Shown: piece by piece, positions 4,134-38,555 of the stretch | Layout of the letters: each line of letters begins with the position of its first letter | Numbering within the stretch: position 1 is the stretch's first letter | From: a virus | Taxonomy: Duplodnaviria; Caudoviricetes | Virus record (IMG/VR): IMGVR_UViG_3300025383_000009 | Length of the DNA: 64,000 bases | Reading direction: 5' to 3' (one strand) | Notes under the pieces: model-generated | The model's input: the letters and a program-made list of their open reading frames with translations, nothing else | Databases searched by the model: none | Told to the model about the DNA's origin: nothing | Made by a program: the position numbers and the translations under genes

Positions 4134-5428
4134 AGCATGTCTTTTAATTCTTTTAGAGGAGCGTTCCAGTTATCATACTCACGCTGTCTAAGTACGGTTA
4201 AGTTATCACCATACCATTTTGTGTGGTAGCCTAATTTTGCCCACGTATAATAAGTTAGTATAGGTATGATGACTATAGATTCTTTACCTATAGCTCCAGC
4301 CGCATGGATCAAAGATGTGCAACTCGATACGATGATATCCATCTGATTGATATAATCTAATGTATCGTCCCATGTCTTGATCTTGTCTTTCAATGGTATG
4401 ACTCGTGGATGAGTAAAGTCCTCGTCTATATGAAAGGAGTATATCTCATAGTCTTCAGGTATAGAGTCGATCAGCTGTTCGAATGGTATGGTTCTATGTA
4501 AGTCTTGATCATACTTAGGATTTCCCATACACTTGATACCAATTCGTTTCTTGCGGTTATTTGGAAGTAGAGGTGCTTTGTTTAATGGAGTTAAGTATGG
4601 ACCATACCATAGATCGTCTTCTTCTAGGTCTAAGTATGTGGGCGATGGCATAGAGTATGTCCATAGCCAATCATGCGGTATAGCATTGATGTTAGAAACA
4701 GTCTTGAAACCGTTCCTCTCAAATATAGCAGCGATATCTTTTCTATCAGTATACCATATAGGATTCATACCAACATCTTTAAAGTGTTTCATGAACCGTA
4801 CTGATATGATCTCGTCACCTATACCGCCTTCTGCACAGAGGATTATAGTCTTTCCTGGCTGTGGAGTACCTTCCCATAGTTGACTCTTAGGAAATTTAAA
4901 CTCGTGCCAGATATTCAACTTACGACCATCGAGTAACACATGACGAAGGCCTTCTTTAAACTTACCGTTCCTTAAGTCGTATGTTCCTAGGTTAAAGTTG
5001 ACTCTAAAGTTAATATCTTGTGTATGTGGTTCTGTAAGTATCTTGCGAAGGATCTTTTCTCCTTCATCCTTCTTATCAAGCAAAAAGAAACACATGGCTT
5101 TGTCCATCTGGTTTGGATGGTCGTTGGGTTGTTCTTTCTCGTTAATACCCACATACGTTAATGCTTCTATGGGTTTATTTAAGTTGAGGTATGCTCTGAT
5201 GATGTTGACTCGTGCATCAAACTTAGCGTGTGGAGTTTGTACTAATGCATAGATCCTTTCAGCAAGCTCTAACGTATCATTGAACTCTCGAATATCTGCA
5301 TAAAGCTTCCCGATCTGATCGATCTCTTCTATCCGTTGAGCATAAGGCTTTAGTAGATCGAGGACGATCTTAGCTTTGTCAAACTGTTTGAGATGTATAA
5401 AAAACTCAGCTGTTGCTAGGGGATTCAT
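4130..5428 (-). CDS. TPR-repeat protein fused to a GT9-like glycosyltransferase domain
   Basis: Helical TPR-like N-terminal half, then LWEG...AEGGIGDEI..VRF, RIGIKCMGNP, TWDDTLDYINQMDIIVSSCTSLIHAAGAIGK. Confidence 0.72.
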   Translation of the reverse strand: MNPLATAEFFIHLKQFDKAKIVLDLLKPYAQRIEEIDQIGKLYADIREFNDTLELAERIYALVQTPHAKFDARVNIIRAYLNLNKPIEALTYVGINEKEQPNDHPNQMDKAMCFFLLDKKDEGEKILRKILTEPHTQDINFRVNFNLGTYDLRNGKFKEGLRHVLLDGRKLNIWHEFKFPKSQLWEGTPQPGKTIILCAEGGIGDEIISVRFMKHFKDVGMNPIWYTDRKDIAAIFERNGFKTVSNINAIPHDWLWTYSMPSPTYLDLEEDDLWYGPYLTPLNKAPLLPNNRKKRIGIKCMGNPKYDQDLHRTIPFEQLIDSIPEDYEIYSFHIDEDFTHPRVIPLKDKIKTWDDTLDYINQMDIIVSSCTSLIHAAGAIGKESIVIIPILTYYTWAKLGYHTKWYGDNLTVLRQREYDNWNAPLKELKDML

Positions 5429-6116
5429 TAGGTATCACGAAGTAGTTCACGAATATGTCACGCTTAATCTCTTGATGCACACTATGTATCTTGTAGTTAT
5501 TATCTATAAGCCATTGATCAAAGTCTTCATAGTTTTGTTTGGATACTTCTATGAACATCTTTGGTCTACACCTATCGATAGTTTCTTTTAGACCAGCAAG
5601 AGCTACCATCTCCATGCGCTCTACGTCCATCTTAATAAAATTAACATCGATGTCTTTAAACAATGAATCACCTGTTACTACACGGACAGGTTCAAGAGCT
5701 AAATCATTCTCGCTGTCATATAGAGTAGGACTGATGGTCGCTGCACCTAAGTTGTCTTTACCATATATTAAATGTGGGTAACCAACGCACTCTCTATCTC
5801 CCAGTGCTAGTCCAATAAAATCTAAGTTGACGTTATGACAATAGTTCAGAGCTACGTTAGCAAGCAACAACCTATAGGAGCGTGGGACTGGTTCAACGAC
5901 ATAAATGGTCTTAGCGTCTGTGAACTTACTGAAGTAAACAGTATGATTACCGATGTTAGCACCAATGTCTATCAATACTGTATCAGCATCGATGTGCTGC
6001 TTCATGAACTCTAGTTCCTGTATCTCAAAGAACCTATTATTGACTAGATGAGATTGTATGATATCTTTTGGATTATCTAGTATCCATCTCATGTCTTTTT
6101 TGATTTCATAACTCAT
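5406..6116 (-). CDS. FkbM-family SAM-dependent methyltransferase
   Basis: IDIGANIGNH, VVEPVP, FIKMDVERME, RPKMFIEV. Confidence 0.88.
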   Translation of the reverse strand: MSYEIKKDMRWILDNPKDIIQSHLVNNRFFEIQELEFMKQHIDADTVLIDIGANIGNHTVYFSKFTDAKTIYVVEPVPRSYRLLLANVALNYCHNVNLDFIGLALGDRECVGYPHLIYGKDNLGAATISPTLYDSENDLALEPVRVVTGDSLFKDIDVNFIKMDVERMEMVALAGLKETIDRCRPKMFIEVSKQNYEDFDQWLIDNNYKIHSVHQEIKRDIFVNYFVIPNESPSNS

Positions 6117-19776: not shown

Positions 19777-22700
19777 TTAGTACCCGTATGTGATCTTATC
19801 TAAATCTGTCCTTGATTGGAAGTTACCAGATACGATGTTCACTATCAATGTACTGCCATCCCATGATACTATTGTACCAGCTGCAGGGTTTTGTGGACCT
19901 ATGCCAGCAGAATCAACTGTGATCTCTGTGCCGACCAATGAAGCGAAGTCGATTAAGTTAGACCAGTATGTATCTGGGTATAAGTATGCTTTACCTAATG
20001 GTATCGCGCCGTTATCAGAGTTATTTAATGAGTAGAATAAGTTTAATCCGCTTGGGTCATCAACAGTTGTTCCACCGATACGACCTTGTACAGACTCTCT
20101 TACCCAACTAATCGCTGTGCCAGAAGATGTTGGAGTTACCTTCAATGATATCACTGAACCGTTTGTTACTGCTGTTACATCCATGACTTTCGTAGCTTTA
20201 TCTGATCTTAATGTCGCATACTCAGTCATGTAAACTGCAGACGCATTTTGTGTTAAGATAACTTCTGTAGCTTGTACTTTGTTTGTTGTGCTAACACCTT
20301 GTACGATATACTTAGCTGTACCAACTTCGTTAGCAGCAAACATATCTACTGTTGTTTGTGATGTGCCAGATAATCCTGTTGAACCGTTTGCTAGGCTGTA
20401 ACCTTGTAGACCTGTGTAACCTTGATCACCGTCAGGACCAGTAGCACCTGAAGCACCAGTAATACCAGTAGCACCATCTAAACCGGTTTCACCTTGTATA
20501 CCTTGGTCTCCGTCTAAACCTGTTTGACCTTGTTCACCAGTTACACCTGAAGCACCTTGTACACCAGTAGCACCAGTTGAACCTGTATAACCTTGTTCAC
20601 CGAAAGCACCAGTTGCACCTTTATATCCATTAATACCTGTGGCACCATCTTGACCTGTTACACCTGATGCACCTTCCATACCGACTGCACCGTCAAGGTT
20701 AACATAAAGTGTATCAACTCCTGGAGTACTGTTACCTACTTCTGTTACGATAGTAATATTAATAGTACCAGTAATATTATCATAACTGTTTACTAAAGCT
20801 GTAGCAAAGTTCTCTGAATCTTTAGAGATGATGATAGTTTGACCAGCAGCATATGAATATGAGTAGTCAAGTGTTTGTGAATCTATTTGTATATTGATAT
20901 CACCACTTACATTGATATTTACACCGTTATCAATGTAGTAGTCAGTGTTAAGTAATATTGCTTTGAATCTATGACCATATGAACCAGTTGCACCATCAGT
21001 ACCAGTCTCACCTGTTGGACCTGATGCACCATCGATACCTTGTACACCAGTAGCACCTGTTGCACCGTCTTGACCTGTAGGACCAGTCGCTGCGTCATAA
21101 CCTAAGATACCTTGTTGACCGTCTGGACCTGTTGGACCTTGTACACCTGTAGCACCTGTCTCACCAGTTTGACCTTGATCACCAGTTATACCGATTCCGC
21201 CATCGATACCAGTTGCACCGTCTTGACCTGTTGGACCTGATGCACCATCAATGCCTTGGTTACCGTCTGGACCAGTAGCACCTGTTGCACCAGTTGAACC
21301 TGTGTAACCTATGTTAGTTGCAGCTGTATTACCTAAATATGTGTATCCACTTGGAACATCATGTTGTGGAGTAGTTATTAATTCAAACACAGCACCATCG
21401 AGTGTGCTTACTGCTGGATAACTATGCGATTGAGCTAATAAGAATGGTGAACCGTTAGTATTAGTTGCTGGATCACCGCCTTTTGACCATGCTCCACCGT
21501 TAACTCTTGCCCAAAATACTCCTGTATTATAATTATAATTAACTGCAACTTCTACTAAATCTCCAACGCCCCAATTAATACCTAATGAATCAGTTTGGAT
21601 ACCATTTATCCAAACAGTACCATCTTGTTGGAATCCTTGCGATTGGTCATCATATCTTCCTAATGCATTATTAACATCAATGCCAGATGTTCCTAAGCCA
21701 ATGCGATTAGTAGTAGCAGGTATATCAGCATCTAACCTTACACCAAACATACTTAAACCAGAGTTAGCGTATGTTGCCATTTCAGCAGTAGTTATTGCTG
21801 ATTCAACATAACCAACTGTACCACTTAATATTGTATTTGCGCCGTTACTGCCGCTTGAAATTGTTTGATTAGGCCCATAATGACCATAACCAGTATCAAA
21901 TTGAATTGCAGCTGATGAACCATCACCACCTTGAGCACCAGTAGCACCAGTATAACCTGTTGCACCATCTACACCTGTGTAACCTTGTTCGCCATCAGGA
22001 CCTGTTGCACCATCTAAACCTGTTGAACCTTGGATACCATCAGCACCAGAAGCTCCGTCTATACCAGCTTCACCAGTTGCACCTTGAAATCCTCGTTCAC
22101 CTGTAGCACCAGCAACACCAGTTGCACCAGTTAAACCTACTGTACCTGTAGCACCATCAGCACCAGTTGCACCTCTGGCATTATATGTACGACCTTGCAA
22201 TCCTCGTTCGCCATCGATACCTTGTGCGCCGTCTTGACCGGTAACACCAGTAGCACCAATTTGACCTACTGCTCCGTCAAGGTTGATTACCCATGCGTTA
22301 TGTGAACCAGTACCTACGTGATCTGTTTGTGTAAATGCAAGGATGTTTGTTACTGGATCGTAACTTGTAACTGTACCATGTTGATGTATACCACCACCAT
22401 CGGTAAGAATAATTGTTTCACCACCACCATAACTTAATCTTTCATCTACGACTACAACTCCTGTAGCACCTGTAGATGCAAGTGTAAATGCAGTGGTTGA
22501 AGAAGTTTTGTATCTGTGACCATATGAACCAGTTGCACCAACTTCACCTGTTTGACCTGTTGCACCTATGTAACCAGCATTTCCTGTTACACCACGACGT
22601 AAGAATGTGAATCCGCTTGGAACACCGTATTCAGCAACATCATTGATAGTAAATTGTGCAGGACCATTAGAACCATAGATACCTACTGCTGGATAAACAC

Positions 22701-23886
22701 CAGCACTAAATACAGAATTATCAACTGATAAACCGCCAACACCAGTAGCTGGATCATTAGAGATATTACCATTCCAGTAACCATTGTTTACTCTGAACCA
22801 TATTAAATGGTTATCAGTGTCTACAGCTATATCAATCTTGTCTCCACTAGTATAGCTATCATAATGAGTTACATATGAACCAGCATAATAGATATCACCG
22901 TTTTGCGTATAAGCTATGGAGTTTTCATCAGGACCACCAAGCATAGCATTAAGATCAACATTACTGTTTGCGATACCAACTGAATTAGCGTTGTCACTAA
23001 AGTAATCGAAGGTAAAGCTGAACATGTAAGCATTGCCGCCGGCAATGTTTTGAGTACCTAGCGCATTATAGTAACCTTCGTTATCATCTGAAATTGTGAA
23101 GTAGTCGTCATTTGGGTAATATAACTGACTACCGATATAAGCTGGATCGAATACGTATGTGTTTGCAATGTAACCACCGAATCCACCTGTAGCACCATCA
23201 AGACCTGTTGGACCTTGATCACCTGTTACACCTTGAACACCAGTAGCACCGTCATAACCTTGTGCACCATCTTGACCAGTTACACCTTGAGAACCTGTAG
23301 CACCTTGGGCGCCTGTTGCTCCTGTAGCACCTGTCTCACCAGTTGGGCCAGTTGCACCTGCATAACCTGTATTTGTAGCAGCGCTATATCCTGTAATTGT
23401 GATTGTTGCATTTACTGGAATATCACCTAAAGTTATAGGTGTGTTTGTTAAACCTAAGAAAGATATATCACCTTGATCTACATAATTATAAACTGTGTAT
23501 GTAACTGAGTTATATACAAACGTCATTCCTGGTGCAGGAGTAGCTGATAGCGCTCTACCATCAATACGAATGTAGCTACCGTAGAGCGTTGGATATACTA
23601 ACCAAGCGTTATCTAATGCAGCTGTTACAGTTGCATCGATTGATACATATGTACCACCATTACCGCCTGTAGCACCTGTTTGACCAGTTACACCAGAAGC
23701 ACCATCAATACCGGTAGCACCAGTAGATCCTGTCTCTCCTCTAACACCTGTTGCACCGTATGGTGATTCACCTGGACCAGAAGCTCCGACCCATTCACCA
23801 GCTGTGTTGATGACCTCAAATCCAGAGGCACCGACCGCTAGTCCGTTCTTGACGTTAAACTTTATATCATTGGTTGGTAGTGACAC
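19777..23886 (-). CDS. Collagen-like fibre protein with two SPRY/ConA-like domains and a shared C-terminal domain
   Basis: Gly-X-Y runs; two domains with GDxIxIAV....[10 protein letters not shown]..G.DPAT; C-terminal TAKYIVQ...TEYA; GTG start. Confidence 0.72.
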
Positions 23887-23914
23887 GTGCCTATCTCCTG
23901 AATTTTATTTGTTA

Positions 23915-26191
23915 TTAAGCTAGTACTGCTTCTCTTAAGAAGTCGATTGTTGTGTTTGTATTTACTGGTGATACTTTAACGTATACTGTACCAGAGTCAT
24001 AGTTTGCACTTACAGTCATTAGAGACGCTGTTGAGTACATCGTTGCATACTCTGTAACTGAAGCATCTGAACCATCATGCGTTACCAATACTTCTGTTGA
24101 GTGTACATCGCTACCATGTGTAGCTTGGATGATATACTTAGCTGTCCTGTAAACTGTAGCATCATATGAATCGATAGTTTGGTTAGCAACTGTAGTTGTT
24201 AATGGATCGTTTCCTGCAGTTAAACCTGTACCTGTAGCACCAGTTAAACCTGTTGAACCACTTGCACCTTGGTAACCAGTAGCTCCATCTAATCCTTGAG
24301 GACCTGTTGCTCCTGTGAAACCTGAAGCACCTTGGATACCAGTTGCACCAGTATAACCTGTTGCACCAGTATAACCAGTCGCACCATCTACACCTTGAGG
24401 ACCTGTTGCACCAGTGAAACCTGTAGCACCTGATGCACCTTGGAAACCAGTGGCACCTGAAGCACCATCGATACCTGTTGCACCTGTGTAACCAGTTGCA
24501 CCTTGAACACCTTGTGCACCATCAAGGTTAACTGTCCATGCTGTATGTTCACCTGAACCAACTGCTGTTGTCTTGTCGAATACTAATTGGTCACCGCTGT
24601 AACTTACAACTGTACCTAATTGATAATTTGTATCATCGTAAGCAACTACGATTGATTGAGCTGGAGTATAAGCTAAACCAGAATCAACTGTTAATGTGAT
24701 TTGACCAGTTCCGCCGATAGTGAATCTTGAAGTTGATGATGTTGCATAGAGGTCACCGTTAGCACCGCTAGCACCAGCAATACCTGTTGCACCTGTGTAA
24801 CCAGTTGCACCATCGATACCTGTAGCACCTGAAGCGCCGTCAATACCAGTTGCACCAGTATAACCGGTTGCACCATCGATACCTGAAGCACCGTCAATAC
24901 CTGTCGCACCTGTGTAACCTGTAGCACCATCGATACCAGTTGCACCTGTATAACCTGTAGCACCAGTATAACCTGTCGCGCCACTTGCACCGTCGATACC
25001 TGTAGCACCTGTATAACCTGTTGCACCATCGATACCAGTTGCGCCTGAAGCACCTTGATATCCTTGTACACCATCGTTACCTTGAGCACCTGTTGCACCA
25101 CTTGCACCTACTGGACCAGTAGCACCTGTATCACCAGTATAACCTGTAGCGCCGTCAGCACCAGTTGCACCTGAAGCTCCTTGAATACCTGTCGCACCGC
25201 TTGCACCATCAGCACCGGTTGCACCAGAAGCACCATCAATGCCTGTTGCACCGCTAGCACCTTGAAAACCAGTAGCACCTGATGCACCTTGATCTCCTTG
25301 AGAACCGGTTGCACCTGTGTAACCAGTGGCGCCTGAAGCACCTTGGAAACCTGTAGCACCTGATGCACCATCGGCACCTGTAGCACCGCTTGCACCTTGA
25401 ATACCTGTTGCACCTGTATAACCTGTAGCACCTTGAACACCGACAGCACCATCAAGGTTTACTGTCCATGCTGTATATTGTGTGCCTGTTGCATGATCTG
25501 CGGTTGTGATGATTAAATCTAATTGACCAGTACCTGAATTGTAGTTATCTACATAACCGATTACATAATCGGTAGGATTAGTTTGAGAAGCAACTAATAC
25601 TGATTGTTGTGGAGTATATGAAAGACCAGTTTCTACATTAATTGTTAATGTAACACCAAGAGCGTAGTCTGTAAGTGTTAATGGATCAGTTGAGGTTGTT
25701 GCGTATTTGTCACCGTTAAGACCGGCAGAACCTGTTGCACCTGTTTGACCAGTTGCACCTGTATAACCTGTAGCACCTGATGCACCATCGATACCAGTTG
25801 CACCAGTATAACCTGTAGCACCTGTGTAACCTGTTGCGCCGTCAATACCTGTTGCACCTGTAACACCAGTAGCACCTGTATAACCTGTAGCACCATCTAT
25901 ACCAGTTGCACCACTTGCACCATCAATACCAGTAGCACCTGTATAACCTGTGGCACCATCAGCACCCGTGGCACCTGATGCACCATCGATACCGGTTGCA
26001 CCGGTATAACCGGTTGCACCGTCAATACCTTGGACACCTGTTGCACCTGTGTAACCTGTGGCACCTGTAGCTCCAGCAGGAAGTTCGGCTCCTATCCAAT
26101 TACCGTTTTCGTCAATGACGTCAATTATGCCTGACGCACCCCCTACGGATAGCCCGTTTCTTACTACAAAAGTTGAATTATTCGTTGCCAC
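23915..26191 (-). CDS. Collagen-like fibre protein
   Basis: Mostly GAT/GYT/GID/GAS triplets, two inserted beta domains ending WTVNLDGA, C-terminal RTAKY...TEYA domain; GTG start. Confidence 0.78.
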
Positions 26192-26232
26192 AGTTTGATC
26201 TCCTTGATGATGGTGTTAGTGCTTTATACTAT

Positions 26233-26240
26233 TATTTATA
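26233..26240 (-). promoter_or_regulatory. T4-type late promoter TATAAATA
   Basis: Exact motif in the intergenic gap upstream of the 26191 fibre gene. Confidence 0.7.
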
Positions 26241-26250
26241 ATAAATTTAT

Positions 26251-27855
26251 TTAGAGTCCTATCGTAGTTCTTATGTATTTTATATCAGTATAAGGACTTT
26301 GGGGCGTAAATCTTAACTCAATATAGCCTGTCCCAGACCATTGAATACGTGATACTATTAATAAAGGTGATCTACTTTCAACAGTAGATGCTACGTATAC
26401 ACCTGGGCTAGTCATGATAAACTTACTACTAAGAGTCGCTGATATAGCTCCTCCATTTAATGATATTACTGTTGTAGGTATTGCTGATAGTAATGCTTGT
26501 ACTGCTGAATTTGATGTAGAGTATATAGTTAATGTTGTTCCAGTCCAGAACGACAGAGCCGAAATGTTGATATCTGGTGATGAATAGTCATTATCTACAG
26601 GTGAGTAATACGTAGCGAATGATCCTAATGATTCACCCATACCTGCATACTCTGTAAAGAATACGTTTGCTTTATCCCATAAGAGTAATAACTCTTCAGC
26701 ATAGTAGTTTGTACCTTTTGTCAGCTGTACCTGATACTTTGCACTCCTATATATTGAGGTATCTAAGATGTCTATTAGCTGTTCATCTGTTGTGTTATTG
26801 GTGGTAAAGTCAATTACGTTGTCTACACCAATACCAGATGCACCTACAGGACCTTCGATACCTGTTGCACCTGTAATACCTATAGGTCCAGTAGCACCAG
26901 TCGCTCCAGCACCCTGTGCACCTGTGGCACCGTATGGACCAGTAGCACCTGGTAAACCTACTCCAGTTGCTCCTGCAATACCGCTTGCTCCTTGTGTACC
27001 AGAAGCACCTTGAATTCCAGTAGCACCTGTTTGACCTGTGGCACCTTGTGTACCTGTCGCTCCAGTTAAACCTGTTGAACCACTTGCACCTTGAATTCCA
27101 GTAGCACCTGTTTGACCTGTGGCACCTTGTGTACCTGTCGCTCCATCCAAACCAATAGTACCAGAAGCACCATCGATACCACTAGCTCCTTGTGGACCAG
27201 TAGCACCTGTTGCACCAGAACCTGATGCTGTTGCAGATATAGTTAATGATTGTGGGTTTGCTGAATGATCTGTTGTGATGGTGATACCAGTACCACCAAT
27301 GATATGTAGTGTATCTTCTGCTACAGCTACGAGGTCTGTCTGACCGTCTACTTTGATAGTCTTGAACGCAGAACCAAGACTTACTTTAACTTCACCGCCA
27401 CCAAGATCTGATACGTTGAATCCTGTATCCCTATCGAACCTTAGAGCGTTTACACCTGTTACTTCGTTAGTGATTGATCCTGTAGCACCACCAGTTGCAC
27501 CACTGATGTTACTTACCGTGATGTTTGCAACACCAACACCGCTCGCACCAGTTACACCGCTTGCACCTTGTGCACCGCTGGCTCCGATACCAGATGCACC
27601 TTGTGTACCTATTGCACCGCTTGCACCTTGAATGCCTTGTTGACCTTGTGCACCTGATGCACCAATACCTGAAGCGCCTTGTTCTCCTTTAGGACCTGTA
27701 GCACCGCTTGCACCCTGTGGGCCTGATGCACCACCTGTATCTCCCTGTGGGCCTGTTGCACCAGTAGGACCGGTAGCACCAAAGCCAGCACCGTTACCTG
27801 ATAGCCCTTGTATACCAACGGCCGCGACTTCTACGTATACGTCTCCTAATGCCAT
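26251..27855 (-). CDS. Collagen-like fibre/structural protein
   Basis: Gly-X-Y runs; C-terminal RSAKYQVQ...TEYA domain shared with the two neighbouring fibre genes. Confidence 0.72.
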
Positions 27856-27864
27856 TCTTATTCC

Positions 27865-28218
27865 TTATATGATCTCTGGAGGATCAGATTGCGTTATTTG
27901 TGGTGTGAATATAATAACACCTTCTGAGACTCTTAATGATTCTCCAAAAGGTGATGTCACGTATACATCATACATGTATCTTCCAGGTTTAATCGATGCA
28001 GTATCAGCTGCAGACAATGATAGTCTTACTTGTCCACCTGTAGTAGAGTATACTTCAGCATGAAAGTCAATATGATTATGAGCTATATAAGACTTACGTA
28101 TGTAAGCCCGAGTAGTAAAACCCGATAAGTTTAGTGGCAGTCCGTCTGAACCCACCACAGTGATTACTGCACCAAAGTTTGATCCAGTGTCAATATAAAA
28201 ATTTGTTATAGCTGCCAT
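27865..28218 (-). CDS. Small virion structural protein (BppU-N-like Ig fold, common in T4-like aquatic phages)
   Basis: NFYIDTGSNF...LNLSGFT.RAYIRKSY...GQVRLSLSAADTASIKPGRYMYDV...RVSEG. Confidence 0.6.
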   Translation of the reverse strand: MAAITNFYIDTGSNFGAVITVVGSDGLPLNLSGFTTRAYIRKSYIAHNHIDFHAEVYSTTGGQVRLSLSAADTASIKPGRYMYDVYVTSPFGESLRVSEGVIIFTPQITQSDPPEII

Positions 28219-28246
28219 AGTTATTATTTATACGACACTGGTTCCT

Positions 28247-29623
28247 TTAAATTGGTTGTATGCTTATAATCTTCTTACCAGTCTTAGGTTCTGGTATCCC
28301 TTTTACAGCTCCGATGATGTCTTTTCTAGACTCATCAAGGTCTCCGTCAATATAGTATGGGAGACATCCTGTTAACATCTCAAACGCAGCCATGAAGAAC
28401 GGTATGTTATCAGAGTAAGCGTTATCACATGCTAGGCTCCACATATCTCCATGTAAAAACATGCATGAACCTTGACATATCTGTAATACTGGACATGTAG
28501 GACACTCTTCTCTATGACTCCAGTGTGTACTAGTCTTTAACTTGATGTTGTCAAAGTCATTAACGTTACCGATAAGGTGACTCTCACCATTAAATCCTAT
28601 AGCTACAGAGCTAACGTTTTGACATGTTAGCACGTTACCTTTTAAATCTACTGCAATATTGTGTTCATCATCCATCGTACACTTCTGACCTACAGCAACA
28701 GCTGGTCTTTTGGTTTGTATAGATGTTATGAACTCGTTGATCTTCTTCTTAGTGGCACCAACATTAGTTCCAAGTCCACTTCTTACTTCTTTAAACGTAT
28801 TAGCTCGATAGTTAAGGTGATCGTGTTCATCAGTAAAACAAACGCTAGCACCACCTTCATCATATGGATCAATGAACCCACCTTCTCCGATAGGTACATC
28901 AAACCCAAGTTTATCTTTAAACCATTGACTTATGGCTGCACGGCTTTGGTTATCTTTATTCACCATAGCGTTAAAGCTCATACGATTCTTTGGTCCTAAC
29001 CTATTCCATAGATCCATGATCATCGCGAATTGTTCTGGATCATCGAATGGGTCTAACCCTCTAACATGATAACCTGGTCCATCATGTGATATACCAACAC
29101 TAAACCCTAAGTTATCAAGCCATTCATTCTTTTCTAAGTCTAATATAGTACCATTAGTCACTATACCAAATGCTATGTTTGGATACATCTTCCTCATGCC
29201 TTCAGCAAGAGGCTTTAGACTCTTCCAATATACAAAGGGCTCACCACCCCAAAATTCTACTTTAACTCCAGTACCGTCTTTATTATCACCACCATCAAAC
29301 CATGTTGGTAGTTGATCTAAGAACGGACCTACATCATCCTTTGTCATCTCATCAGCTTTAGGTACAAACCTTTGACTGCAGTAGACACATTCATAATTAC
29401 AAGATAAGCCTAGCTGTATCTTGAGGATCTTAATATCTTTACTCTTTTTTGCTGGAGTGTCTTTACTTGTAGTAAACACTTCTTTATAGGAACGAGTATT
29501 ACCGTTACTAAAATCTATCACGTTTCCATTTGCATCTGATATCTCAGAAGTCATGTTATCATACCAAAACTCTACATCTTCATTTGTTACAGGTCTCACA
29601 CATTTTATATTAAACTTCGCCAT
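28247..29623 (-). CDS. Radical SAM enzyme with C-terminal SPASM domain (peptide/protein maturase-like)
   Basis: CNYECVYC (CxxxCxxC), FWGGEP, IVTNG, KC...VDLKGNVLTC, and ECPTCPVLQICQGSC...AC (SPASM cysteines). Confidence 0.9.
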   Translation of the reverse strand: MAKFNIKCVRPVTNEDVEFWYDNMTSEISDANGNVIDFSNGNTRSYKEVFTTSKDTPAKKSKDIKILKIQLGLSCNYECVYCSQRFVPKADEMTKDDVGPFLDQLPTWFDGGDNKDGTGVKVEFWGGEPFVYWKSLKPLAEGMRKMYPNIAFGIVTNGTILDLEKNEWLDNLGFSVGISHDGPGYHVRGLDPFDDPEQFAMIMDLWNRLGPKNRMSFNAMVNKDNQSRAAISQWFKDKLGFDVPIGEGGFIDPYDEGGASVCFTDEHDHLNYRANTFKEVRSGLGTNVGATKKKINEFITSIQTKRPAVAVGQKCTMDDEHNIAVDLKGNVLTCQNVSSVAIGFNGESHLIGNVNDFDNIKLKTSTHWSHREECPTCPVLQICQGSCMFLHGDMWSLACDNAYSDNIPFFMAAFEMLTGCLPYYIDGDLDESRKDIIGAVKGIPEPKTGKKIISIQPI

Positions 29624-29643
29624 TTCATGTCCTTAATTATAAA

Positions 29644-30288
29644 TTATAATGTAACGTAATTCCTTACAGATTCAACAACCTTTATGTTAGTAACTAATGC
29701 AATAGTATCAACGCTTCCTAAGTTAACTTCAGTAGTATGGAATATTGAAGAAGGATGTATAGTAAATGTTCCTAGTACAGGACTTATTGGGAATAACATC
29801 TCATGATTCAATAATCTACTTCTTGAAGAAATAGGATCGATTATGTGTAACCTATTTCCTGCAGGTTTTTGATGAGTATTATTATTTGGAAAGTCTGTGA
29901 CTTCCATAGATACCCATAAAACTGCCACGTAGTCAACGCTTCTATGATTGTGAGGCTTTGCATACTCACCAGGAGCAAACTTACGTAAGCTAGTGATAGC
30001 TTCAAACTCTACTTCTTCTGGATTAATAAAACCTTCAGCTGCAGCTAACTGAGCCATCCTAGATTTTAACATACTTTTAAATAGCTGGCATTCTGGACGA
30101 GGATCAGCTAGTAAGTTATAAGCTGCCTCTTTTGACTTACGCATATAATAAGGGACATGAGCCTCAGGATGCTGAGCTTCATATTCTTCACCAATACTAA
30201 TAATATTCTTTAAAAAATCATCAGTAGCTTCAACCGCTCTTTGTTCAATAAGAATATTGGTTGGCCATAGTTGTGCAATATTAGTCAA
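29644..30288 (-). CDS. 2OG-Fe(II) oxygenase-like protein (TIGR02466-like)
   Basis: YAKPHNH..DYVAVLWV, LHIIDP, PSSIFHTT (distal His). Confidence 0.65.
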   Translation of the reverse strand: MTNIAQLWPTNILIEQRAVEATDDFLKNIISIGEEYEAQHPEAHVPYYMRKSKEAAYNLLADPRPECQLFKSMLKSRMAQLAAAEGFINPEEVEFEAITSLRKFAPGEYAKPHNHRSVDYVAVLWVSMEVTDFPNNNTHQKPAGNRLHIIDPISSRSRLLNHEMLFPISPVLGTFTIHPSSIFHTTEVNLGSVDTIALVTNIKVVESVRNYVTL

Positions 30289-31057
30289 GTGTTACTACCT
30301 TAGTAGATACGCCAGTCCAGTATTTGTATCCAGTTTTAATTGTTACTACTTCACCAGCATTTAATCCAGTAGTGTCTAAGTTAAATGTACCACCATTCGT
30401 TACACGTGATCTATTAATTACACCAATATCAGATGAAAGATAAACCGTAGTGTTTGCTGGAGCCGTCACTGTATATGCATGTGTATCACCAGCTTTAATA
30501 GTACTTGGTCCATTAACTATGATAGGTAACCATGATTCTAAGAATGCATGCATCGATACTATAGATGTAGATGAAGGAGCTGATCCGTTAACTGTGATGT
30601 TTGCACCATCTCTAAATATGATAGTTAGTTCGCTGGTAGGACAATCCTTATATGGTGTTAAGATATACAAGTAACCATATGAAGAGTATCTACTGTTGAT
30701 AACTGACCATGGTGAACCTGGATATGTTTTACCTTCTGCCGCTGGTGTCACATCAGTTTTTTGATAGATCATACCTGGATCACCTCCGCCCTTTTCACTT
30801 AATGAAAGTTGTGTAGTCTCCATAGCCATGAATTCTTGAGTATCTGGGATATGCATTGCTTTTGGAAACAACGCGATACATCCATGATCCTGAGAATATT
30901 TTTGTACTAGTTCTGCTAGATTGAATGTACCAACAGCATTGGTTGTTCCAATTGCAGTAACAGTAGTATCAGAAATCTCCAATGTCAAGATATCATTTTT
31001 GATAGTGACATCGTTTTTTGATAACGTTCTTGTTGTACTTAGTGAGTAAAAATTCAT
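30281..31057 (-). CDS. Hypothetical protein with a C-terminal Ig-like beta domain, co-transcribed with the rSAM gene
   Basis: Beta-rich C-terminus IIVNGPSTIKAG...VYLSSDIG...GLNAGEVVTIKTGYKYW; overlaps the oxygenase start. Confidence 0.5.
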   Translation of the reverse strand: MNFYSLSTTRTLSKNDVTIKNDILTLEISDTTVTAIGTTNAVGTFNLAELVQKYSQDHGCIALFPKAMHIPDTQEFMAMETTQLSLSEKGGGDPGMIYQKTDVTPAAEGKTYPGSPWSVINSRYSSYGYLYILTPYKDCPTSELTIIFRDGANITVNGSAPSSTSIVSMHAFLESWLPIIVNGPSTIKAGDTHAYTVTAPANTTVYLSSDIGVINRSRVTNGGTFNLDTTGLNAGEVVTIKTGYKYWTGVSTKVVTLD

Positions 31058-31081
31058 TGTTTTTTCCTTTTTATCTATTTA

Positions 31082-31447
31082 TTAGCAATTACATGCACAG
31101 TTACAGTTATAGTTTTGTAAAGTTAAAGCTCCGGAAGCACCAGTAGCACCGTTCCAATATAATCCCCAAACTCCACTTGTAAGGTGACCTACTCCTCCTC
31201 TTCCGCTACCGCATGCGCTAATAACACCACTGTTAAGGTTATCACCGCTTATGAGGTTTCCAGCTGATAAGAATGGTCCATAGTTACCAAGATCATTAGT
31301 AAACTGACTTAGTGCTGTTGGTCTTCCAACTATACCTGTGGCTCCTGTAGCGCCTGATGCACCTACAGTGCCCCATACAAATGATGCTGTACTTAAAGTA
31401 GTACCATCACCAAATTTTATATCACCATTTTCTAATATCGTTGCCAT
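31082..31447 (-). CDS. Small fibre-like protein with Cys-rich C-terminus (..NYNCNCACNC); putative rSAM substrate
   Basis: N-terminal NGDIKFGDGTTLSTA, internal PTALSQFTNDLGNYGPF, terminal Asn-Cys repeat. Confidence 0.7.
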   Translation of the reverse strand: MATILENGDIKFGDGTTLSTASFVWGTVGASGATGATGIVGRPTALSQFTNDLGNYGPFLSAGNLISGDNLNSGVISACGSGRGGVGHLTSGVWGLYWNGATGASGALTLQNYNCNCACNC

Positions 31448-31456
31448 TTATTATCC

Positions 31457-31960
31457 TTAGCAGTTACAGTTGCAATTACAATTATTAGCATTGATTGACA
31501 AAGTTGTACCATTCCAGTTTAAGTGTCTTGGACCATATTCATTATATGCATAGTAACCTGATAATGTCATCTGATAAAGTTTTGTACTAGCTAAATTTTG
31601 TGAAACGCTGACCACATATACTCCAGTACCTCCTGTAGCGCCTGAAGTCTGTGATACAAAATATGTACCGTTTGCAACACCAACACCGTTTAATGCATTA
31701 GGACCAAGATTATTGCCGATAGCTATGCTACCAGATATGATACTTGTTACAGTTAGATTGGTTCCTGATATACTTCCAATAAAAACTGCAGCATGACTTA
31801 AATTATCAATTGTAATAAATGGATAGTAGTTGCCAAGATTATTAGTAAACTGACTAAGATTAGTAGGAGCACTAGTTAATTGTGATTGTGTAACATTTGC
31901 AGAAGATAGTGTGGTGTTATCTCCAAAAACTAATGATCCATTTGTTATTTTTGTTGACAT
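31457..31960 (-). CDS. Small fibre-like protein with Cys-rich C-terminus (..NNCNCNCNC); putative rSAM substrate
   Basis: N-terminal KITNGSLVFGDNTTLSSA, PTNLSQFTNNLGNYYPF, inserted GSISGTNLTVT domain, terminal (NC)4. Confidence 0.7.
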   Translation of the reverse strand: MSTKITNGSLVFGDNTTLSSANVTQSQLTSAPTNLSQFTNNLGNYYPFITIDNLSHAAVFIGSISGTNLTVTSIISGSIAIGNNLGPNALNGVGVANGTYFVSQTSGATGGTGVYVVSVSQNLASTKLYQMTLSGYYAYNEYGPRHLNWNGTTLSINANNCNCNCNC

Positions 31961-31968
31961 CTATTATC

Positions 31969-32253
31969 CTAACAATTACAGTTACAGTTACAGTTGCAAT
32001 TACCATCAGTTATCAATGTTAAATTGCCCGCACTGTTTACTCCAACACCTATATTAGCAAAAGCACCAGTACTGTACGCGGTAGTATCTACACCTGTGAC
32101 AGGGAAAAAACCACCATAGTTACCCAAGTCATTAGTAAATTGACTAAGGTTTGTTTTTTTGTTTGTTATATTTGCATATGGTAAATTAGCGCTACTTAGT
32201 GATGTGTTATCACCAAATGTTATATTACCATTACCTATCTTAGTTGTTGCCAT
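31969..32253 (-). CDS. Small fibre-like protein with Cys-rich C-terminus (..GNCNCNCNCNC); putative rSAM substrate
   Basis: N-terminal KIGNGNITFGDNTSLSSA, KTNLSQFTNDLGNYGGF, terminal (NC)5. Confidence 0.7.
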   Translation of the reverse strand: MATTKIGNGNITFGDNTSLSSANLPYANITNKKTNLSQFTNDLGNYGGFFPVTGVDTTAYSTGAFANIGVGVNSAGNLTLITDGNCNCNCNCNC

Positions 32254-32261
32254 CTTTTATC

Positions 32262-33173
32262 CTAGTTACCTTTTAAAGAGTTAACTTCTGCTCTTAATTC
32301 TTTGATAGCTTCGATCAACAGTGGTACTAATCTTTCATATCGTACGGTTAAGTACTGTGTATCTACTGGAGCGTCTGTAACGATCTCTGGTAGTACTGCT
32401 TGAACTTCTTGTGCAGATACGCCAACTTCCCTCTTAACAGCAAAACCTAAAGCTTGAGCTGATTCATTAGCTTCATAGTAGAAGCCAGATAAAGCATCAA
32501 CCTTATCAAGTGCATTTTCTATACCACCTAACTTTGTCTTTAATCTTTCGTCTGAGTAGTATGATGTGATTTGGTTTGTAGCACGGATCTCACCGACAGT
32601 ACCAGATGCAGTTGTACCAACACCAAGGCTGCTATATTGTATATTTGATGAACTACCAGGAATATCAAACCCTGTAGCTCCAGTAACTCTACCTGCGGTA
32701 TCAACTGTAATTCCTGGGATAACTGTAGCAGAACCGTATGTTGCAGCAGAAATACCAGTCGTAGTAAGCTTAGAACTTGGGATACTTCCAGCTAACATGG
32801 TAGCTGTCACTGTACCAGTATCTGTAGTATACACACCGTTTGTAACTGTACCAGCATTACCTGATACACTACCTGTGACGTTACCTGTTAAGTTTGCTGT
32901 GATGACGTTTGCAGCAAAGTTACCAGATCCATCCCTCTGTACGATCGTGTTTACTGTACTAGTAGTGGCGGGTAAGTAACCATGAAGCTTATCAGCGTCA
33001 AGCCCTGAACCAGAACCATCTACTGTTTCTAATTTAGTTAATATATCAGATGCTGTATAAGCTGATGCGAGCAACCTTGTACCAATATCTGTACTCAGAT
33101 TGGTAAAGTTAGTATCCATCTCAGTGTTTGTTAAAGGTGCACCTTTTACTGATCTAAGCGTTAGTGTTGTCAT
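32262..33173 (-). CDS. Short tail fibre with C-terminal peptidase S74 intramolecular chaperone
   Basis: LTLRSVKGAPLTNTEMDTNF anchor, GSGSGLDADKLHG, YYSDERLK...GVSAQEVQAVLPE..VRYERLVPLLIEAIKEL. Confidence 0.82.
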   Translation of the reverse strand: MTTLTLRSVKGAPLTNTEMDTNFTNLSTDIGTRLLASAYTASDILTKLETVDGSGSGLDADKLHGYLPATTSTVNTIVQRDGSGNFAANVITANLTGNVTGSVSGNAGTVTNGVYTTDTGTVTATMLAGSIPSSKLTTTGISAATYGSATVIPGITVDTAGRVTGATGFDIPGSSSNIQYSSLGVGTTASGTVGEIRATNQITSYYSDERLKTKLGGIENALDKVDALSGFYYEANESAQALGFAVKREVGVSAQEVQAVLPEIVTDAPVDTQYLTVRYERLVPLLIEAIKELRAEVNSLKGN

Positions 33174-38547: not shown

Positions 38548-38555
38548 TATTTATA
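38548..38555 (-). promoter_or_regulatory. T4-type late promoter TATAAATA
   Basis: Exact motif overlapping the gp8 stop, about 26 nt upstream of the 38522 start. Confidence 0.7.

Follow-up and report, generated by a model that had tools for sequence, protein, structure and literature searches.

Why would a tailed phage carry, among its tail-fibre genes, a complete radical S-adenosylmethionine (SAM)/SPASM enzyme closely behind three small genes whose products all end in alternating asparagine and cysteine residues? The locus that raises this question occupies positions 28,247–32,253 of a stretch of 64,000 nucleotides (hereafter, the window) from virus record IMGVR_UViG_3300025383_000009 (Duplodnaviria; Caudoviricetes). 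The viral contig in IMG/VR to which the window belongs is 127.6 kb long and estimated to be 74% complete. So far, the known targets of radical SAM/SPASM maturases are peptide natural products and a few enzyme subunits. A previous interpretation of the locus, made from its letters and open reading frames (ORFs) and referred to below as the original prediction, was that of a system resembling those for peptides made by the ribosome and modified post-translationally (RiPPs), in which a conserved leader, a variable passenger and an Asn/Cys core, together with tailoring enzymes, would lead to crosslinking or metallation of the tips of virion fibre proteins. Comparison of the locus with its homologs in phages and prophages supports a functional link between the enzyme and the (Asn-Cys)n tail, with the association holding in ~95% of cases when approached from the enzyme side and in 27 of 27 when approached from the tail side. 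We propose, with moderate confidence, that the core module consists of a fibre or fibre-tip protein with an (Asn/Asp-Cys)3–9 tail and a dedicated SPASM enzyme that modifies this tail post-translationally via thioether chemistry.

Association of the enzyme with the tail

Homologous loci were gathered both from viral contigs and from a set of prokaryotic genomes in which each species is represented once. A locus was counted if at least 3 kb of sequence preceded the enzyme gene; 127 loci qualified, and in 121 of these an upstream ORF on the same strand, no more than 6 kb away (median 1.4 kb), contains the motif [N/D/Q]CxCxC. Of the other 21,609 ORFs in these loci, only 26 contain it. In the reverse direction, a DNA pattern encoding NCNCNCNC followed by a stop codon was scanned over 2.9 million viral contigs (IMG/VR) and detected in 40 stretches. 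The enzyme gene is present in 35 of these, including every one of the 27 with at least 3.5 kb of sequence downstream of the pattern; the five stretches without the enzyme have less than 1.5 kb of downstream sequence. The co-occurrence that the original prediction had put forward as its check is thus apparent from both sides, and these counts of gene neighbourhoods exclude a chance association between tail and enzyme. It is highly likely that the enzyme acts on the tail.

The pairing extends over well over a hundred phages and prophages, including those of Burkholderiales and other Pseudomonadota, as well as uncultured freshwater viruses. In Ralstonia phage RSP15, a fibre ending in NCQCGN is followed by two genes and then by the enzyme; in Achromobacter phage JWF, a fibre in which NCNCDCNCNCSC precedes a Hint domain is followed by one gene and the enzyme. 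In several contigs, the enzyme gene comes within ~50–100 nt of the stop codon of the tail gene, and the core module therefore comprises two genes.

In these minimal two-gene modules, represented by 11 loci, the tail protein is ~130–170 aa long and contains several N/C-rich runs in addition to the NC tail, no immunoglobulin (Ig)-like or cupin gene intervenes, and the enzymes show ~44% identity to that of the window. The tail gene is not always located upstream: in locus L063, an S74-type fibre ending in ...CSNCSCGSK (4557–5463) is encoded downstream of the enzyme gene.

Our literature searches found no description of the tail-enzyme module; one match, an 'antibiotic synthesis' radical SAM gene of cyanophage S-SCSM2R, has a different gene context. 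This enzyme family and the C-terminal tips of phage tail fibres accompany each other in both directions, with hardly an exception. If the enzyme cross-links the tail, the module would represent a new class of virion post-translational modification and a new substrate class for the radical SAM/SPASM family, and would probably help to determine host recognition or how stable the fibre is. Two of its carriers, RSP15 and JWF, are cultured phages and the substrates are small, and a short (NC)n tag combined with a single enzyme could serve as a compact protein-stapling tool.

Tail-fibre proteins as carriers of the tail

In the window, where all genes discussed lie on the minus strand, the substrate would be split over three small paralogs, each with a docking motif, a fibre-repeat motif and a tail. 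The fibre-like paralog 1 (94 aa; 31969–32253; tail codons 31972–32001) ends in (NC)5 (terminal sequence GNCNCNCNCNC); paralog 2 (167 aa; 31457–31960; tail codons 31460–31483), also fibre-like, in (NC)4 (terminal sequence NNCNCNCNC); and the fibre-like paralog 3 (121 aa; 31082–31447; tail codons 31085–31108) in NYNCNCACNC (tail NCNCACNC). ORF analysis, translation and an alignment that combines the three with nine orthologs taken from three related contigs bear out the original description of these lengths, of two shared motifs and of Cys-rich tails. In the alignment, N8, G9, F13, G14, D15 and T17 are invariant in the N-terminal NGxIxFGDxT motif, T34, L36, T40, N41, L43, G44, N45 and Y46 in the TxLSQFTNxLGNY motif, and the NCNCxC core of the tail is invariant as well. 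The tail codons of all three paralogs mix AAT with AAC and TGT with TGC, as had also been pointed out; the repeat is therefore maintained at the protein level. An origin of the tail as a DNA microsatellite artefact was rejected on account of this synonymous variation and the weak support from Tandem Repeats Finder, which reports only a weak 6-nt array at 31972–32003.

Paralog 2 has an inserted middle domain, and its middle region matches tail-fibre phrog_38233 (E = 1.1e-9), the only fibre PHROG match among the three; in the Atlas, the proteins closest to it are viral and some belong to structural families, with weak scores that make them a lead only. The 94- and 121-aa paralogs are assigned as fibre proteins through paralogy and context. 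A short collagen-like insert in paralog 3, GATGATG, is similar in kind to the repeats of the collagen-like fibres encoded downstream.

The three small tail genes are present in all 8 related contigs with sufficient upstream sequence (enzyme identity 67–72%). In a tree over five related contigs, the small proteins group by gene position with moderate support (92/91, 94/93), and the 94-aa paralog falls into one orthogroup with the first gene of the related triplets, so that the triplication is older than those phages. On this phylogeny, the three small proteins are old, non-redundant paralogs. Recent tandem duplication was considered and is rejected by the same grouping across contigs.

Outside this clade, the proteins that carry the tail measure ~80–690 aa and have N-termini unrelated to one another; collagen-like and Hint-fused fibres are among them, and in most loci the tail ends a fibre of 200–690 aa. 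Tail-fibre PHROGs are matched by 7 of 10 sampled tail-bearing proteins, and one protein matches Collagen, which supports the conclusion that the tail carriers are tail-fibre proteins. Across loci, only the tail and the strand-like stretch that precedes it recur, and the NGxIxFGD motif, restricted to this phage clade, looks like a clade-specific fibre docking or assembly motif. Given that the same tail is carried by fibres with unrelated N-termini, the motif is not a RiPP leader, and the arrangement of conserved leader, variable passenger and core envisaged in the original prediction does not hold. Nor is the locus a RiPP system in the strict sense, as the cassette has neither a leader protease nor an exporter and no conserved leader.

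The same evidence bears on the possibility that the small Cys-tailed proteins are not virion parts at all, but moron-encoded precursors of a released RiPP, for example a peptide with a bacteriocin-like or signalling role. Although a SPASM maturase gene behind small Cys-rich ORFs recalls sactipeptide and ranthipeptide clusters, a protease, an exporter and an immunity gene are all absent from the cassette, which is located between fibre genes and possibly within a late structural transcription unit. Moreover, in most loci the tail belongs to fibres of several hundred residues, some of them collagen-like, with N-termini that are not conserved in the way a leader would be. We regard a released peptide as highly improbable.

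Fibres of 360–400 aa in six other loci bear the NC tail themselves, and their N-terminal motif is that of the S74 fibre encoded in the window (32262–33173). The architecture of the window looks split, with a fibre that ends in an S74 domain and tails on three separate small proteins.

In six fibres, the tail is fused to a Hint domain; one of these is gp028 of Achromobacter phage JWF (L002:4796–6244), and one belongs to a Burkholderia paludis prophage. The Hint domain, a sub-threshold match in Pfam that starts with CFPxxT or similar, begins right after the NC run or a few residues later, as in NCNCDCNCNCSC followed by FPAGT.... Self-cleavage by the Hint domain, at its Cys, would put the NC run at or near a new fibre C-terminus, possibly as a thioester, and such exposure would imply that the C-terminal position of the tail matters.

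Tail composition was counted over 101 distinct tails. The repeat number ranges from 3 to 9, with 4–5 the commonest. N accounts for 71% of the residues between the tail cysteines, D for 12%, A for 8% and Q for 2%, and in about half of the tails Cys is the very last residue. Many Burkholderiales prophage loci have a longer variant with a second upstream unit, NCNCG[AG]FNC[RVY][TS]NCNCNC..., often ending in CCGCC, which suggests a two-part Cys module.

The radical SAM/SPASM enzyme

The 458-aa enzyme (28247–29623) scores above the cutoffs for both PF04055 (Radical_SAM; 31.2 bits vs 29.5) and SPASM TIGR04085 (33.9 vs 27). In 50 homologs with 52–81% identity to it, the three cysteines of the CX3CX2C motif (C75/C79/C82) are invariant, and so are the seven SPASM cysteines C315, C334, C374, C377, C383, C387 and C399, spaced as C315-x13-G329-x4-C334, then C374-x2-C377-x5-C383-x3-C387, then C399; the full SPASM Cys set attributed to the enzyme from the start is indeed there. 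The family counts more than 2400 homologs at E≤1e-20, and PHROGs assigns it to the category 'other'.

The AlphaFold model of the enzyme (predicted local distance difference test score (pLDDT) 88.6) comprises an N-terminal three-strand extension (residues 1–60), a radical SAM core (~65–300) and a SPASM domain (315–399), and compares with solved radical SAM cores at Z 15–22. The closest solved fold is that of CteB (Z 22.5 over residues 1–421), followed by ChlB and the anaerobic sulfatase-maturating enzyme (anSME). The extra N-terminal domain noted in the original prediction is real and conserved: it spans ~60 aa, with Y21 and S26 invariant and the core beginning near residue 65, and is modelled at pLDDT >90 as three strands and zero helices. 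The alignments of CteB and TigE start at residue 1 of the model, whereas those of ChlB and anSME start only at about residue 60; in the model, the extension thus appears to take the place of the RiPP recognition element (RRE) region of CteB and TigE. The original prediction had asked whether this domain has an RRE/PqqD-like fold. A canonical PqqD-like RRE is a winged helix-turn-helix with a three-stranded sheet and three helices; with three strands and no helices in the model, the domain does not look like a canonical one, and the enzyme has no PqqD match in Pfam.

Only seven cysteines, rather than eight, are invariant in the SPASM half, and C261 of anSME, a ligand of auxiliary cluster I, is without a counterpart in the profile alignment. 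Hence, one iron of an auxiliary cluster is predicted to be free of Cys ligation. It is at such a non-Cys-ligated cluster site that CteB reportedly binds the substrate Cys, as described by Grove et al. in 2017.

Proposed chemistry of the tail

Serial formation of thioethers between Cys sulfur and the β-carbon of Asn or Asp is the likeliest reaction, although our belief in it and our doubt are about evenly balanced. Thioether chemistry is favoured because of the NxxcB-like acceptor spectrum of the tails, the precedent of QhpD, the CteB-like fold and the open cluster site. The guess of the original prediction, a thioether-type cross-link, accordingly stays the best available one, resting as it does on the tail spectrum, the seven-Cys argument and the fold. 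In the reaction that we envisage, the thiolate of a tail Cys would bind the open iron site of auxiliary cluster I, and the 5'-deoxyadenosyl radical would take the β-hydrogen from a nearby Asn or Asp. A thioether from Cys sulfur to the β-carbon would form, and the step would recur along the tail. Covalent staples, set within one chain or between chains of the fibre, would give a compact fibre end able to withstand unfolding and proteolysis.

Each of the known systems resembles the phage module in part. NxxcB links Cys to the Asn β-carbon and tolerates Ala, Gln and Asp (PMC9389541). When the phage tails are compared by substrate motif with this streptococcal RaS-RiPP pair, NxxcB/NxxcA, an NCNC run can be read as overlapping NxxC motifs and the N/D/A/Q spectrum matches the NxxcB acceptors; the phage enzyme, too, is a SPASM-type radical SAM protein. 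However, NxxcA is a short peptide with a leader and is subject to quorum-sensing control, whereas the presumed substrate here is the C-terminus of a phage fibre, in which the motif is iterated 3–9 times. QhpD is a SPASM enzyme that makes Cys-Asp/Glu thioethers in a protein subunit rather than in a peptide (PMC10114670). Its substrate, QhpC, receives several methylene thioethers and, as would a fibre, stays in a larger assembly; unlike the fibres, QhpC is an enzyme subunit, non-viral, with a different motif and different partner proteins. The likeness to CteB/SCIFF lies in the fold, including the N-terminal region, and in a seven-Cys SPASM half that fits an open auxiliary-cluster site, and the likeness to PapB/freyrasin in the PapB ranthipeptide maturase being the best near-full-length NCBIfam match. 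Unlike CteB and PapB, the phage enzyme has an N-terminal domain without the helices of a winged helix-turn-helix, and it is paired with a CxC rather than a CxxxD motif and with large structural proteins as substrates.

Several observations weigh against a thioether-forming fibre modification. The [N/D/Q]CxCxC motif is missing from six of the 127 enzyme loci, although at least two of the six are still tailed (RSP15, with the degenerate NCQCGN, and L021, in which the tail ORF lies ~6 kb from the enzyme gene, beyond the search window). Some non-Cys positions of the tails are occupied by Ala, Tyr, Arg or Val, so that Asn and Asp are preferred but not required everywhere. In fold, anSME, which converts Cys to formylglycine, is nearly as close as CteB (Z 19.7). 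In NCBIfam, the enzyme misses the curated cutoffs of all named maturase families by a wide margin, with 56.7 bits vs 340 for PapB (NF047865), 35.5 vs 425 for SCIFF/CteB (TIGR03974), 35.4 vs 453 for QhpD (TIGR03906) and 41.8 vs 349 for anSME (TIGR03942), and the reaction is not readable from family membership. Neither TIGR04115 nor any model of PqqE, the SPASM enzyme that matures PqqA, is among the 25 best NCBIfam matches listed for it. Judged from these profiles, the enzyme at best works like PapB, CteB and QhpD, without being a member of their families. Finally, we infer from gene context only that the small proteins are part of the virion. The predicted complex of the enzyme with three 4Fe-4S clusters, SAM and the 94-aa paralog, with a median score of 0.20 against a mark of 0.32, speaks neither for nor against binding.

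The proximity of anSME raises the possibility that the enzyme acts on the tail through other radical chemistry, be it formylglycine formation, epimerisation, C-C or C-O cross-linking or modification of a C-terminal Cys. Not only is anSME among the closest solved structures, but it is also among the closest sequence matches, with a full-length profile alignment; furthermore, the enzyme is outside all characterised maturase families, SPASM enzymes catalyse many types of reactions (PMC10114670), and a modified terminal residue would suit the half of the tails that terminate exactly in Cys. Nevertheless, the anSME motif C/S-x-P/A-x-R is found in none of the 101 tails, and no sulfatase is encoded nearby. 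Both auxiliary clusters of anSME are fully Cys-ligated, by eight cysteines, whereas the phage enzyme family lacks the eighth. The strict periodicity of the cysteines, along with the N/D/A/Q spectrum, fits a cross-link between donor and acceptor better than the oxidation of single residues. Such other chemistry is, in our assessment, unlikely. The label 'anaerobic sulfatase-maturating enzyme', which the JWF homolog carries in GenBank, is probably wrong for these phage genes.

Thus, we retain thioether formation as the preferred reaction and conclude that phages probably cross-link fibre tips by radical chemistry. A more specific version, which we consider doubtful, is that inter-chain thioether staples lock a trimeric fibre tip, in this clade a heterotrimer of the three paralogs. 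If this is true, a radical cross-link introduced by an enzyme would for the first time be seen in a virus particle, a novel means of hardening a receptor-binding organelle would be established, and the Hint-fused variants would show that the tail needs a free C-terminus before stapling.

Accessory proteins

Two further proteins are encoded between the tail genes and the enzyme gene, one of 258 aa with a C-terminal Ig-like domain (30281–31057) and one of 214 aa, with a TTG start, that resembles cupins and 2-oxoglutarate (2OG)-Fe(II) oxygenases (29644–30288). The 258-aa family occurs in this position in 85 of the 127 loci, the 214-aa cupin family in 88, and both together in 64; being confined to part of the loci, they are not obligatory, and many lineages do without them. 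The original prediction had listed both as part of the block with the enzyme, and these counts, along with the modules consisting of tail and enzyme only, speak against their being required.

The 258-aa protein has no Pfam, PHROG or NCBIfam match. Its Atlas model is poor (pLDDT 0.45), but the AlphaFold model (pLDDT 88.1) and fold comparison reveal a Big_1/intimin-type Ig domain at residues 177–258 (VIA Z 9–10 to intimin, invasin and GH2; root-mean-square deviation ~2.2 Å), so that the description of the protein as Ig-like was correct as regards its C-terminal part. The N-terminal alpha/beta domain (residues 1–176) has no match among solved structures in our fold searches, and a Foldseek search of the protein against the PDB returned only partial Ig-like matches.

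The 214-aa protein belongs, by its profile matches, with the PF13759/TIGR02466-type cupins: it matches phrog_81 (E = 1.5e-12) and, below the cutoff, PF13759 (E = 5e-5; 24 bits vs 27), has PF13759 neighbours in the Atlas, and its family profile matches PDB entries 3bvc and 2rg4. It has a metal triad, H113, H115 and H184, in which H113 and H184 are invariant among 32 homologs and position 115 is H, D or E. The RxS motif, which binds 2-oxoglutarate, is present in only some clades of the cupin family and absent in this phage. Of the original description as a 2OG-Fe(II) oxygenase-like protein, the PF13759-type resemblance and the metal triad have support, whereas β-hydroxylation of Asn is left unsupported. 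The cupin family splits into members with H-x-H...H, including the one of this phage with its three His, and members with H-x-D/E...H. With three His in the triad and no RxS, a cupin is more like those of the thiol dioxygenase type than like 2OG oxygenases. With low confidence, we suggest that the accessory proteins serve in substrate presentation and in further metal-dependent oxidation.

The frequent presence of a conserved metal-binding cupin next to the module brings up another explanation of the tail, also raised as metallation in the original prediction, namely that (NC)n mainly binds metal or an iron-sulfur cluster along the fibre axis, much as the HxH sites of T4 gp37 bind iron, with the enzyme or the cupin involved in assembly or loading instead of cross-linking. 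Geometrically, the alternation of residues in a strand would put all cysteines on one face, toward the core of a trimer, and, as fibres usually are trimers, layers of three Cys would result. But it is the radical SAM/SPASM enzyme, complete and with its SAM-cluster motif invariant, that is essentially obligatory for the tail, not the cupin, and a metal site leaves the preference for Asn and Asp between the cysteines unexplained. We know of no metal-loading pathway that employs a radical SAM/SPASM enzyme. Compared with covalent modification of the tail by the enzyme, which we prefer, a metal site seems quite improbable.

Genomic setting

The cassette lies within a baseplate and tail-fibre module. 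In the order of transcription, baseplate wedge genes (38.5–45.4 kb) are followed by the genes for a 1720-aa structural protein, a 68-aa coiled-coil protein, the 303-aa S74 fibre, the 94-, 167- and 121-aa paralogs, the 258-aa and 214-aa accessory proteins, the 458-aa enzyme, an LtfC-like protein and three collagen-like fibre proteins. From the S74 fibre to the enzyme, the intergenic gaps are 8, 8, 9, 24, −8 and 20 nt, in agreement with the earlier statement that the downstream same-strand genes are separated by about 25 nt or less, the largest gap being 24 nt; AGGA-type ribosome sites overlap, or come just past, the stop codon of the preceding gene in the block.

The placement of the block among tail-fibre genes, likewise stated in the original prediction, is evident on both sides. 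Upstream, 8 nt from paralog 1, lies the 303-aa tail fibre (32262–33173) with a C-terminal Peptidase_S74 intramolecular chaperone domain (PF13884, 45.6 bits vs cutoff 22), which matches many tail-fibre PHROGs. Downstream of the enzyme gene is that of a 117-aa LtfC-like beta-sandwich protein of the tail-fibre assembly type (27865–28218; PF23926, E = 7e-5; phrog_1084 and phrog_3304, 'L-shaped tail fiber protein assembly').

No near-identical DNA turned up in a megablast search with the block, which covered 50,697 phage records, and a scan for sigma-70 promoters and terminators showed no excess over shuffled sequences. A T4-type late-promoter-like motif, TATAAATA, is located on the minus strand at 38548–38555, just upstream of the gene for the 1720-aa structural protein, and the next one on the same strand, at 28225–28232, comes past the enzyme gene and just upstream of the LtfC-like gene. 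The pair suggests a possible late transcription unit that would hold the whole cassette. As the total count of TATAAATA in the pattern scan is not above chance (11 vs 6.5 ± 2.8), this unit is proposed from the position of the motif only.

Directly downstream of the cassette (19777–27855) are encoded the collagen-like tail-fibre proteins, of 1369, 758 and 534 aa, with G-x-T/S repeats, and a further minus-strand copy of TATAAATA, at 26233–26240, is found just upstream of the gene for the 758-aa protein.

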